Origin: Eledone cirrhosa
Lineage: Eukaryota
NCBI GenBank assembly: GCA_964016885.1
Contig: OZ024745.1
Span: 114,576,001 to 114,640,000 of the forward strand
Direction of reading: 5' to 3'
Length of the DNA stretch: 64,000 bases
Shown: piece by piece, positions 10,854-63,783 of the stretch
Numbering within the stretch: the stretch's first letter is position 1
Layout of the letters: each line of letters opens with the position of its first letter
Notes under the pieces: generated by a model
Databases searched by the model: none
What the model was told of the DNA's origin: nothing
What the model saw: only the letters and a program-made list of their open reading frames with translations
Translations under genes and position numbers: made by a program

Positions 10854-10900
10854 GTGTTGCTGAAGATGGATAAAAATCATGAAGTAGATGTATACAGCAC
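10854..10900 (+). ncRNA. Degenerate type I hammerhead ribozyme; a second decayed copy at ~10755-10800
   Basis: GTGTTG-CTGAAGA-T GGAT AAAA ATCA T-GAAG-TAGATGTA-T A-CAGCAC; helix I pairs over 6 bp, A15.1 changed to G. Confidence 0.55.
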
Positions 10901-11130
10901 TCTTACATGGGTACTGAAGTAGTTGTGATATGATCACAGCCTAAAATACTCATAATGAGACTATATATAAGTTTATTATACAGAAATATATTGTATATAG
11001 ATCTTTATATGTACTCATTCTAGGCCATGTTATGTTAGCACTATCGCACACGCACACACACACACACACACACACACACACACACACACACACACACACA
11101 CACACACACACACACACACACACATGTATT

Positions 11131-11426
11131 TATACATTAAGTACAAAATGAGGTTTCACATTAAGGTTTTATTAATTATGCACAGTTACAACTGTTACAC
11201 AGAGGAGTGGTTCAGGATCCATCCCAATCTACTCATCAGATTTGTTAATCAAGCATAAACAAGATTTTGGATTTTGCTTAATGAACAAATTTGATGAGAA
11301 GATAGAGCTGGAAACAGGTCTATAACATTAACATGGACCCTGAGCCATCCACCTGTGAAATGGTTGTAACTGTGCATAATCAATATAAACCTTAATGTGA
11401 AATCTCATTTTGCTCTTAATATATAC
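11131..11426. mobile_element. ~300-bp foldback element with a degenerate hammerhead core
   Basis: Outer arms ~11131-11222 and 11332-11426; inner arms 11232-11255 and 11275-11298; TTGATGA..GAAACAGGTC near 11291-11320. Confidence 0.75.
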
Positions 11427-11576
11427 ACTCTGTTATAGCATAGAATGCTGATTTTGGTACCTTCCTCAGTAAACCCTGAATCTACTGAACCCCCAATATA
11501 TATATATATATCTGTAGGAACCAGTAAGACCCCGACAGCTGAGCTCAAGCCGTTTCGACGGCTAATTCTGTATATA

Positions 11577-12516
11577 TCTGTATATATATAAAATTAAGTA
11601 TGTGTGTGTGTCTGTGTGTCTGTGTATTACCTATAGGGGCCTACATCTTACGACCGATTTTCATGAAACTTTACAGGCTCATAGATTAGTCATCGGGAAG
11701 TGTTTTCTATATATCACCGTATCGTTTTTTTTTTTATTCTGGGGTCATTCTGCAGATAAAAATCGATAGAGGGGGTCACCATTTTTTAGGTATCAAAAAA
11801 TAAGATTTTTGGCTCTAACTCCCGCATTTTGCTACCGATTTCGTTCAAATTTTAAAGCAAAATAGAATTTATCATTGCACATCCTGTAATGACTTTATAT
11901 TTTGCAGTTGTTGTTCAGGGACGGCGTGGCAGCCGCTTAAATATTCAAAGATACCACTTTTAAACTCAAATTTCCACTTTTTCAGCTCTAGCTCCCACAT
12001 TAATCAACCTACTTTGTTCAAATTTTACACTACGCTAGATCTGATTATTTCACATCTTAAAGTGGCTTTACATTTTGGATGTTTTGTTCAGGAACGGCGT
12101 GGCAGCCGCTTAAATATTCGAAAATACCACCTTTTCGCTCAAATTTCCACCTTTTCGGCTCTAGCTCCCACATTTTTCAACCGATTTCGTTCAAATTCGA
12201 AACTTCGGCTCCACCTCACACATAAATCAATTTATTTGGTTCAACTTTTATACTATGATAGAACCTATCATTGCCAATCTTATAGTAGCTTTACACTTTG
12301 CATTTTTTGTTCAGGGACGGCGTGGCAGCCATTTAACTCTTCAAAATACGATTTTTTCCACCTCCCACATATTCCATACGATTTCACTCAACATTTCGCC
12401 ATTTGCTACACCTTACGACCGATTTTCAAGAAACTCGCAATCGCTAAGATCAACACCTTTTCATCAAATCAGATATTATTTTTACCTACCCAGGCAACGC
12501 TGGGTACTGCTGCTAG
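11577..12516 (+). mobile_element. Non-autonomous Helitron
   Basis: A|TC 5' end; 3' hairpin TACCCAG..CTGGGTA at 12487-12506 then CTAG|T; internal repeats 'gttcagggacggcgtggcagcc' at ~11913, 12085, 12309; no TSD. Confidence 0.9.
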
Positions 12517-12895
12517 TATATATATATATATATATATATATATATATATATAAGATGTAGGAAGCCCAAGCACAGAAAATAGCTGCAATTAAGTCAAGTG
12601 CTATAACAAAAGATGGGTAAAGATCCTTAGATATGAAAAAATGTTGTCAGGGGTCCCTTACCTACACACACATATATATATATATAAGGATAACAAACTA
12701 TATTGCTGTAGTTAGTATTTTTTCACCCTAGCAAACTTAGTCCTTACGATTCGAACACATGTATGTTTATATTAGTGTTCATCTCTCTTGTTTATTCAAT
12801 TATATTGTACGGCTCAGAAAAGCTTTTTTCTTAGAGCTATTTAATTGTAAGGGACTACCCTGAGTTCTTAACTCAATATATATATATATGATATA

Positions 12896-13175
12896 GTGGA
12901 GGCACGTGGCCTGGTGGTAAGAGTGTTGGACTTACGATCATAATGTCGTGGGTTCGATTCCTGGGTTGCGTGTTGTGTTCTTGAGCAAAACACTTCATTT
13001 CACATTGCTCCAGTATACTCAGCTGAAAATGAGTACCAGCAATAGCTGGGGTTTCAACCCTGCGATGGACTGGCGTCCTGTCCAGAGGGGAGTCTTGTAC
13101 TCTCAGTCCCTTCACGCCATGAAACCAGGATAAGCACTGGCCAAATGAGCCTTCTGGCTTAAGACAGACTTTAGA
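12896..13175 (+). mobile_element. tRNA-derived SINE, family A, well preserved
   Basis: TGGCCTGGTGG A box, GGTTCGATTCC B box, body 'gtgttcttgagcaaaacacttcatttcacattgctccag', (AGACTTT) tail. Confidence 0.92.
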
Positions 13176-13637
13176 CTTTAGATATATGATATATATGATG
13201 CTGTGTGTGTACATATGTTTATGTATGTGTGTATGTGTGTGTACTTGCAAGCCCCCAACATTCTAAACATTTAATATAATTACATGTATACAAACATACA
13301 TGAATTGCCCATTTATTATTTTTGGAATACATTTTAATATCACTATTGTTTCTCTTTTATTTACATATCTTAACAGTAAGTTAGTTAACCCTCTTAGTGC
13401 TGCAGGTGACTGAAGGCACAGATAGAGTAATCTCCCCTTAATACATAATACAGTATCAAGGGAAGCAATTCATATAAAACTTCAGCCTCCAGAAGGTTAA
13501 GCTAATGATTTCCCCTCTATCACATTTATATTCATACACTCTCCTCATTTAATGTCTTGGCCATTATTTCCCTTCTAATTATAGGTTAAGGTTAGGGTTA
13601 GCTAATATACATGTATCATATAATTTGCCTTTCACAA

Positions 13638-62038: not shown

Positions 62039-62310
62039 TATATATATATATATATATATATATATATATATATATATATATATATATATATATATATATA
62101 TATATATATATATTATATATATATATATATAGTGTATTGGTGTGTAACGTTTAGTTACTATTGTTTCACCAATTTCAGCACTCAATGCTAATATGGGTCC
62201 GGTTGCCGATGTGGTATTCTACATTTGGTATTTCACCTTATTCGGTATCCTTAAGAAGCAGAGTATTAATAATAGGAATAATAAGGAGCAAGAACGAATA
62301 TATCAATATA

Positions 62311-62449
62311 GCATCATCATGTTTATTCACGTATAACGCGCGTTTTACGATCGAGCAGCTCAAGGTGTGATCGGAATTGATCGATATGCTCGTACCTTGA
62401 GCTGATCGATCGCGAAAAACGCGTCACGTGTGAATAAACATAACGGTGC
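62311..62449. repeat. CpG-rich imperfect inverted repeat (foldback or MITE)
   Basis: atgtttattcac..acgcg..cgatcga.cagctcaaggt / accttgagctg.tcgatcg..cgcgt..gtgaataaacat. Confidence 0.8.
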
Positions 62450-62520
62450 GTTTTTTTTTTTGTTTTTTTTTTAATGTAAACAAAACATTTTCCAGTACGC
62501 TATGTTGTTAGACGAAATGA

Positions 62521-62568
62521 ATTTAATTCCGATGACTACTATTAGGGTGAAACATATGTAAATTAAAT
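62521..62568 (+). ncRNA. Degenerate type I hammerhead (U4>C)
   Basis: ATTTAATT-CCGATGA-C TACT ATT AGGG T-GAA-ACATATGT-A-AATTAAAT; 8-bp helix I. Confidence 0.65.
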
Positions 62569-63423
62569 CATGATACTATATTTTATATATATATATATAT
62601 ATATATATATATATATATATATATATATATACATATATATATATATATATATATATATATATATATATATATATATATATATATATATACATATATATAT
62701 ATATATATATATATATATATACATATATATATACATATATATATACATATATATATACATATATATATATATATATATATATATATATATATATATATAT
62801 ATATATATATATATATATATATATATATATATATATATGTAGAGAGAGAGAGAGAGAGAGAGAGAGAGAGAGTGAGAGCTCAGCTGTCGGGGTCCCGAAT
62901 CCTTCATATATATATATATATATATATATATATATATAATGATAAGAAACGAAAGGAGATGTGTGGTTACTAAAAACAAAGTTTAGGATGGTGGTTTGGA
63001 CGGAACATGTGGAGAAAAGAAGAAAGAATCCTTCGACAGCTGTAAATCCGCGATCCAGATGTTTCGGCGCTTATTTACAGGACATCTGTAGCGATCCACG
63101 GTGCACCCGAGGCCGTTTCTTAATCAAAAGGCCAGGAGGAAAAGAAGAGAAAAAGGAGAGAAAATGGAAGGAAAAAGAAGGAAAAGAGGAAGAAGAACAA
63201 AGGGGGAAGGGGGTGAGGGAAGAGGAAGAAAGAGAAAAAGGAAAAAAAGGTGAACAGATCCCATCGTGGGGAGACACAGGACAAAGGAACATGCATATAT
63301 ATATATATATATATATATATATATATATAAGCAAAAGGGATATTTAATTTGTTGGTAATTCAACAAATATATATGTTTATAACTGATTTGAAGCACTCGA
63401 CAAGTTTTCTGGAGTATAATATT

Positions 63424-63724
63424 CAATGATATTAAATAAATGGAAACTATATTTATAAAACCATATTTATTCTATTATATATATTTCAAGGGTACCAAAA
63501 GTTTGTTTTATAAATATTGACATATCCAGGATCTTAACAGATCAAGTTTTTCCAGGAAAAACTTGAACCGTTAAGATCTTCTTGTTGGATATGTCAATAT
63601 TTATAAAATAAACTTTGTATTTTATCTGATGAGAGCGTACCAAAGTGTTGGTACCCTTGAAATATATATAATAGAATAAATATATGGTTTTATAAATATA
63701 ATTTCCATTTATTTAATATCATTG
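63424..63724 (+). mobile_element. 300-bp foldback element with a hammerhead core at 63622-63671
   Basis: Outer arms 63424-63498 and 63648-63724; inner palindrome 63498-63616; CTGATGA-GAG C GTACCAA AGTG TTGGTAC C CTT-GAA-ATATAT (helix I register imperfect). Confidence 0.82.
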
Positions 63725-63746
63725 TATATATATATATATATATATA

Positions 63747-63783
63747 TTGCTGACGATAGCTAACAAGCTTGAAACTAGTACAG
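63747..63783 (+). ncRNA. Minimal type I hammerhead ribozyme, GUA site
   Basis: TTG-CTGACGA-T AGCT AACA AGCT T-GAA-ACTAGT-A-CAG. Confidence 0.78.

Follow-up and report, generated by a model that had tools for sequence, protein, structure and literature searches.

A U·U mismatch at hammerhead position 10.1/11.1 in transposon families of Eledone cirrhosa is a published variant of Penelope-like elements

The window analyzed here is a 64,000-nt stretch of the AT-rich, 3.0-Gb genome of Eledone cirrhosa (contig OZ024745.1, positions 114,576,001-114,640,000), in which an earlier reading of the sequence alone had noticed hammerhead ribozyme motifs with a recurrent U·U mismatch at position 10.1/11.1, the base of helix II. 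We find that U·U at this position is an already published variant, common in Hydra-clade Penelope-like elements (PLEs), and is no speciality of the host. The explanation that we consider well supported is that these are type I hammerheads at the 3' ends of PLE copies and of short repeats likely derived from them, in which U·U is fixed by family and likely allows slow self-cleavage, mainly as a predicted dimer.

Results

Hammerheads in the window

Hammerhead-like sequence is present at all nine sites named in the sequence-only reading. Six of them carry the exact CTGANGA...GAAA core, with C3 at 24029 (-), 26020 (-), 47821 (+), 61974 (+), 61959 (-), and 63750 (+); the cores of the other three are damaged, with GAAG for GAAA at 10860 (where the pattern described in that reading is thus not strictly present), A6G in the 45414 copy, and U4C in the 62521 copy. 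The nine sites fall into six families, labeled A to F below, and four further hammerheads were found in the window.

10854..10900, plus strand: family F, degenerate type I hammerhead of an old, diverged family with U·U in the majority; U10.1 at 10867, U11.1 at 10880; GAAA changed to GAAG
23911..24033, minus strand: family D, type I hammerhead; helix II region of 95 nt, with U·U (24022/23928) followed by 8 pairs; helix III palindromic; cleavage predicted after C 23915
25985..26025, minus strand: family A, type I hammerhead at the 3' end of a PLE copy; U·U 26013/26002; 2-bp helix II; palindromic helix III
32444..32488, minus strand: classical PLE minimal hammerhead (32483), a counter-example: one additional G follows A9, and the junction is G-C
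45414..45464, minus strand: family B hammerhead in an inverted, 5'-truncated copy; U·U 45451/45440; core damaged by A6G
47815..47865, plus strand: family B hammerhead; U·U 47828/47839; 3-bp helix II; 4-bp helix III with self-complementary loop; predicted cleavage after A 47859
48369..48445, plus strand: counter-example hammerhead (48373) with A10.1-U11.1
49392..49527, minus strand: hammerhead (49518) with C·A at 10.1/11.1, as in 6/6 sampled copies of its family
61926..61963, minus strand: family A mirror copy in a head-to-head inversion; U·C 61952/61942, private to this copy
61970..62007, plus strand: family A hammerhead; U·U 61981/61991; the element end and a (TA)n run come next
62521..62568, plus strand: family E, decayed hammerhead, core with U4C; this copy C·U, most of the family G·U
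63618..63678, plus strand: counter-example hammerhead (63626) with G·U at 10.1/11.1; family mostly A-U
63747..63783, plus strand: family C hammerhead; U·U 63757/63770; 4-bp helix II; 6-nt palindromic helix III; helix I shortened by 5' truncation in (TA)n

The type I core (CUGANGA, GAAA, and UH) is exact in most family A, B, C, D, and F copies; those of family E are old and in many cases damaged. Three helices, open at helix I, are formed by 4 to 6 bp (helix I), 2 to 8 bp (helix II), and a palindromic helix III, and the first pair beyond U·U in families A to D is C-G, U-A, A-U, and U-A, respectively, not the usual G-C.

These motifs were scored with a relaxed descriptor that demands the core, helix I, at least 2 helix II pairs, and a helix III that is either short or self-complementary, with no demand on 10.1/11.1. 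Nine exact-core matches result in the window, against a mean of 0.08 (maximum 1) in 100 dinucleotide shuffles; their junctions are U·U in four, U·C in one, and others in four. The 63750 copy fails solely through its truncated helix I. The site at 58292 and the repeats at 56835/56892 fail the descriptor and were rejected as hammerheads, as was 20953, a one-mismatch match likely due to chance.

The claim that strict descriptors miss such motifs is borne out. Rfam Hammerhead_1 (RF00163) scores 18.2 bits at 25984-26026, short of its gathering cut-off of 34, and yields no hammerhead match at E up to 10 in two other stretches tested, low scores that owe partly to short helices. An Rfam scan of the whole window gave no hammerhead among the 150 of 465 matches listed, those being microsatellite-driven microRNA (miRNA) matches, and the output of a repeat finder was dominated by (TA)n. 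The PLE minimal consensus, with an extra base after A9 and G10.1-C11.1, is failed by the U·U families and fitted by the 32483 copy.

U·U as a family consensus

U·U is the consensus or majority in five of the six families. Copies were collected in six genome searches queried with window copies, from each of which 36 to 40 candidates were scored out of 20 to 2,172 (all 20 for 10860), covering 20 to 30 loci each. In these mostly query-derived sets, U·U occurs in 40/41 copies of family A (26020/61974), 38/40 of family B (45414/47821), and 64/67 of family C (63750), a degree of fixation that agrees with the earlier view that the mismatch is not random decay. Family D (24029), which is young and high-copy, has U·U in 24 of 28 aligned rows and A-U in the remaining 4; family F (10860) has U·U in 4/6 intact-core copies. 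Such sets favor the query's own junction; in a sample chosen by position and anchored on the 3' half alone, U·U was found in 3/3 copies of family A, 24/32 of family B, and 14/15 of family C. Within family B, helix I shows a compensatory change (C-G in 24 copies, A-U in 8) and loop II varies, with U·U constant.

The wider Y·Y pattern that had been proposed is not sustained. U·C, seen in the 61926 mirror, occurs in 1/41 copies of family A, and C·U, seen at 62521, in 2/13 copies of family E, in which G·U (9/13) prevails; the pattern is therefore U·U, and the two Y·Y variants are private decay.

Junction types across a genome sample

A sample made up of 140 10-kb stretches, set at fixed points along contigs C1 to C11 and C28 (1.4 Mb, 0.05% of the sequence), places these families in the context of the genome. 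Its first 1 Mb gave 106 descriptor matches, compared with none in five shuffles and two in the reversed sequence. Over the full 1.4 Mb, there were 147 CUGANGA matches, against 0 to 4 for eight near-core decoy words; U3-A8 core matches were excluded from this count because one further decoy word gave 22 matches, 20 of them from a single satellite, and another decoy, CAGANGA, gave 24, of which 23 belong to one real family.

The 147 hammerheads divide into A-U 38, U·U 32, G-C 29, C·A 17, A·G 10, G·U 8, A·A 5, U-A 5, and A·C 3, with neither U·C nor C·U among them; an extra base after A9 is present in 18 of the 29 with G-C. When each family is counted once per stretch, U·U accounts for 28/107. Of the 21 clusters that recur in two or more stretches, here counting those with U3-A8 cores, 6 are mostly U·U and 5 mostly G-C; C·A, A·G, A-U, and U-A each prevail in 2, and 2 are tied. 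Mismatches at 10.1/11.1 thus occur in 67/147 sampled hammerheads, and U·U is the commonest mismatch at a generally relaxed position, not the rule, being one junction of several in this genome. The density of about 105 intact CUGANGA hammerheads per Mb extrapolates to roughly 300,000 genome-wide, from 0.05% of the sequence and including one 11-copy array.

Several families depart from the canonical core in other ways. C·A or A·G is fixed at 10.1/11.1 in some (including that of window 49392-49527), and among these families there are helix II regions that extend over 50 to 115 nt. U3-A8 core covariation families were seen in loci L090, L057, L302, and L215 and in metagenome loci L362, L383, and L401, some combined with U·U. 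A further family outside the window, of high-copy Hydra-type PLEs, carries U4A (L034 minus, offset 1773; L089 minus, 9330; L286 plus, 8572). CAGAAGA is present in 30/44 of its anchored copies, several of the others being truncated, and U·U in 34/44; it has a 5-bp nonpalindromic helix III, 23 descriptor matches in the 1.4 Mb, and a lowest-energy fold that is not a hammerhead. The literature searched, which did not cover specialized work on dimeric PLE hammerheads, yielded neither a report of a U4A or CAGANGA hammerhead nor a cephalopod hammerhead survey.

Elements that carry the hammerheads

Two broken open reading frames (ORFs) in the window connect families A and B to PLEs.

26234..27117, minus strand: 3' part of a Penelope-like reverse transcriptase/endonuclease ORF, broken; CxCX5C linker, CxxC..E, and CxH (Hydra-clade type); the family A hammerhead follows about 210 nt downstream of its end
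45512..46186, plus strand: 3' part of a Hydra-type PLE ORF, broken; CxCX5C linker and CxxC..E, CxH altered; lies between the two family B hammerheads

The family A hammerhead lies in sense orientation downstream of a PLE ORF in five loci, the window and four others. For family B, the ORF link is seen in the window, where the 45414 (-)/47815 (+) pair brackets the ORF fragment in the same layout as the inverted, 5'-truncated copies described for PLEs. The window copies are without an N terminus; among relatives, a DKT motif is found in L288 and a match to RW[KR] in L094. Pfam gave no match for five Hydra-type ORFs and identified GIY-YIG in two Neptune-like ones, and the Hydra-clade assignment therefore rests on motifs; a Nematis label for the CxCX5C ORFs was dropped, as the published Hydra-clade definition fits instead. 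For one retroelement protein of this genome, the best named homolog comes from Argonauta hians. U·U hammerheads also follow two Neptune-like ORFs (L220 and L215), and a third ORF type is accompanied by the classical motif with extra G and G-C in nine loci. PLE coding matches make up 44 kb of the first 1 Mb sampled. Links of families C and D to ORFs were discarded, since they consisted of single matches to different Neptune-like proteins and are likely coincidence. The sequence-only reading had spoken of unrelated families; six do lie behind its sites, but families A and B are both Hydra-type PLEs.

Elsewhere in the genome, family C forms tandem units of 420 to 423 bp (L164 and L179), with one type I hammerhead per unit and no PLE protein match in these two loci, and family D forms tandems of 679 to 697 bp. 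As a short, noncoding tandem repeat, family C fits the nonlong terminal repeat (non-LTR) retrozymes, its unit being slightly above the published 170 to 400 nt. Other tandem arrangements were observed: a retrozyme-like array on the minus strand of L115 (offsets 6619-9719) repeats a 310-bp unit 11 times, with an A-U hammerhead in every unit, and L014 contains 44-bp direct tandems of a bare hammerhead. Head-to-head inverted family A ends are frequent, in the window at 61926-62007 and also in L001, L009, and L019-L021.

Relatives outside the genome

A search with a Hydra-type protein alignment returned 78 marine metagenome loci, of which 58 have at least 100 nt after the match. The 28 hammerheads found there are U·U in 15, G-C in 8, G·U in 4, and A-U in 1, and U10.1 never stands opposite C11.1 (Fisher p 0.0004, kinship ignored). 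U·U recurs there in elements richer in GC. In an unrooted protein tree of 35 rows, 26 of the 28 from metagenomes (two near-duplicates omitted) and nine from this genome, U·U requires 6 changes, at least 5 of them forced by well-supported branches, versus 11.6 in shuffles. It sits on deep branches, with families A and B far apart, and core, helices, and U·U persist over protein branches of about 1 change per site or more while the helix sequences change. On these protein and junction sequences, U·U follows the transposon clade more than the host.

Other features of the window

The window also contains a very long TA/CA-rich microsatellite block (28000-35500, GC 8 to 23%) in which repeat fragments are embedded, the 32444-32488 hammerhead among them. 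Long near-perfect hairpins at 16640-16755 and 4791-4873 have weak miRNA-model scores and are likely head-to-head repeat ends. Fragments at 4221-4742, 15894-16451, and 27257-27649 resemble, by eye, the reverse transcriptase of long interspersed nuclear elements (LINEs).

Discussion

Whether the U·U junction had been described was left undecided by the sequence-only reading; it proves to be catalogued and common in PLE hammerheads. Perreault 2011 (PMC3088659) names a natural U10.1-U11.1, the same positions and mismatch as here, and calls it the best-tolerated mismatch; it is among rare core variations there, whereas several large transposon families have it as their consensus here. In File S2 of Craig 2021 (PMC8557442), 25 Hydra-clade families carry the motif, with U·U in 14 and U·C in 1 by our own count. 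These PLEs resemble those of E. cirrhosa in the type I motif near the 3' end, a palindromic helix III of 8 to 10 nt, U·U, insertion in (TA)n, and the CxCX5C linker; the motifs are called canonical, U·U goes uncommented in the accessible portion, and the sole octopus entry, Hydra-1_oBim, is not U·U. Beyond this set, the genome studied here has junctions of C·A and A·G, helix II regions reaching about 115 nt, and the U4A family.

The comparison extends to minimal and canonical-sized hammerheads. In the consensus of Cervera and de la Peña 2014 (PMC4209133), A9 is followed by one extra base and G10.1-C11.1 is highly conserved; the PLE minimal hammerheads of that study likewise lie in PLE repeats, with a palindromic helix III and a dimer model, and the 32483 copy fits them, but G-C, conserved there, is found here in 29/147 sampled hammerheads. 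Two of the 56 rows of Fig. S3 in that study (Hydra and Drosophila willistoni) read U·U, with the placement of GAAA inferred. Cervera and de la Peña 2020 (PMC7229834) report about 60,000 axolotl HHR_Amex2 motifs with U·U at the helix II base, cleaving to 22% in 1 h as a monomer and much more as a dimer. Family C is similar in its type I hammerhead, U·U at the base of helix II, and tandem repeats (420-bp units here); HHR_Amex2 differs in being canonical-sized, with likely loop 1-loop 2 contacts, 350-bp repeats, and circular RNA demonstrated. Together, these sources list the U·U junction for Hydra, sea cucumber, copepod, cnidarians, Drosophila willistoni, and axolotl (PMC8557442, PMC4209133, and PMC7229834). 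For PLEs more generally, one hammerhead was cleaved only with its protein (PMC11167929). In cephalopods, 235 Rfam hammerheads are given for giant squid (PMC6962438), and the accessible part of an Octopus vulgaris repeat paper (PMC13282606) contains no mention of hammerhead or ribozyme.

The favored account, in which type I hammerheads of PLEs have fixed U·U by family, can be placed into a mechanism. Two copies on one read-through or tandem transcript would pair through the palindromic helix III and would be cut after H17; consistent with this, predicted dimers of families B, D, and E take the double-hammerhead fold. The two uridines likely pair as a wobble, with which helix II stays stacked below the sheared G12·A9 pair.

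In the canonical core, N7 of G10.1 provides a metal contact. U·U would lose this contact, so that the cleavage rate is likely lower, with the PLE protein perhaps helping. A cut would trim or circularize the element RNA, and most genomic copies are likely dead insertions. U·U was probably present early in the Hydra clade and then repeatedly switched to G·U, G-C, A-U, C·A, and A·G; given its presence beside Neptune-like ORFs, some convergence across PLE clades is also likely.

Several observations weigh against this account. Thirty of the 58 metagenome loci that extend 100 nt or more past the ORF have no descriptor match, and no ORF link was established for families C, D, E, and F in the loci examined. 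In families A and C, the lowest-energy fold is not a hammerhead as either monomer or dimer, and helix II of family A has only 2 pairs. In the one PLE assayed in vitro, insertion needed no ribozyme cleavage, and no RNA-seq reads ended at the site (PMC11167929, accessible text). The likely ancestry of U·U in the Hydra clade comes from an unrooted tree without published reference proteins, and the placement of the axolotl U·U exactly at 10.1/11.1 is our interpretation of wording alone in the accessible text of that report.

It could be argued that the two uridines are not a pair at all, one being the known insertion after A9 and the other a single base before G12, so that helix II starts one pair further out. 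Published tables attach one U to each core half, PLE hammerheads typically have one base more after A9 (accessible text of PMC4209133), and the frequencies of C·A (17/147) and A·G (10/147) suggest a loose slot. We nevertheless regard this as unlikely, since the pair that would then close helix II in families A to D is not the usual G-C, and the pairing of U10.1 with U but never with C in the 28 metagenome hammerheads, like the lack of U·C and C·U in the genome sample, points to a specific pair. A core variant evolved independently in unrelated families of the host lineage, as the sequence-only reading had suggested, would agree with U·U beside Neptune-like as well as Hydra-type ORFs and with the frequency of mismatched junctions here. 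It is hardly credible in view of the same junction in Hydra, sea cucumber, copepod, Drosophila willistoni, and axolotl and of its majority in the marine metagenome Hydra elements; U·U dominates Hydra-clade PLEs of cnidarians, sea cucumber, copepod, and marine metagenomes alike, and this genome is also rich in G-C, A-U, U-A, and G·U families.

The hammerheads might also be dead relics on elements that need no cleavage, with U·U frequent through an AT-rich genome and the amplification of a few master copies. Amplification from a single master fixes any base, and the in vitro insertion without cleavage mentioned above, together with the very weak helix II and nonhammerhead lowest-energy folds of some families, would suit such an origin. 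That the core, the helices, and U·U outlast protein branches of about 1 change per site or more while helix sequences differ is difficult to reconcile with it, as are the recurrence of U·U in GC-richer metagenome elements and the activity in vitro of a U·U variant (accessible text of PMC7229834), and we give it very little weight, though somewhat more than a host-specific variant. Ribozymes of PLEs with family-fixed U·U remain our preferred explanation.

As U·U has been published and a U·U helix II variant has been shown to cleave, the variant itself changes little; the residual value of the analysis lies in the motif density, the variety of junctions, and the U4A family. The U·U junction may serve as a partial marker of Hydra-clade PLEs. 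A descriptor demanding a pair at 10.1/11.1 would drop 67 of the 147 sampled hammerheads, and Rfam passes none in the three stretches scanned, so that cephalopod counts such as the 235 of giant squid may be far too low. The natural series of U·U, G·U, G-C, A-U, C·A, and A·G, together with the U4A family, offers material on the roles of the 10.1/11.1 pair and of U4 in dimeric ribozymes. Tentatively, and at less than even confidence, a bolder picture can be sketched, in which the genome would hold some 300,000 hammerheads, above the 126,247 of axolotl, nearly half of them unpaired at 10.1/11.1; U·U would be perhaps ancestral and selected in Hydra-clade PLEs; and a Hydra-type family numbering tens of thousands of copies would have fixed U4A together with U·U. 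If these copies cut, the hammerhead core would be looser than descriptors assume, and most cephalopod ribozymes would still be uncounted.

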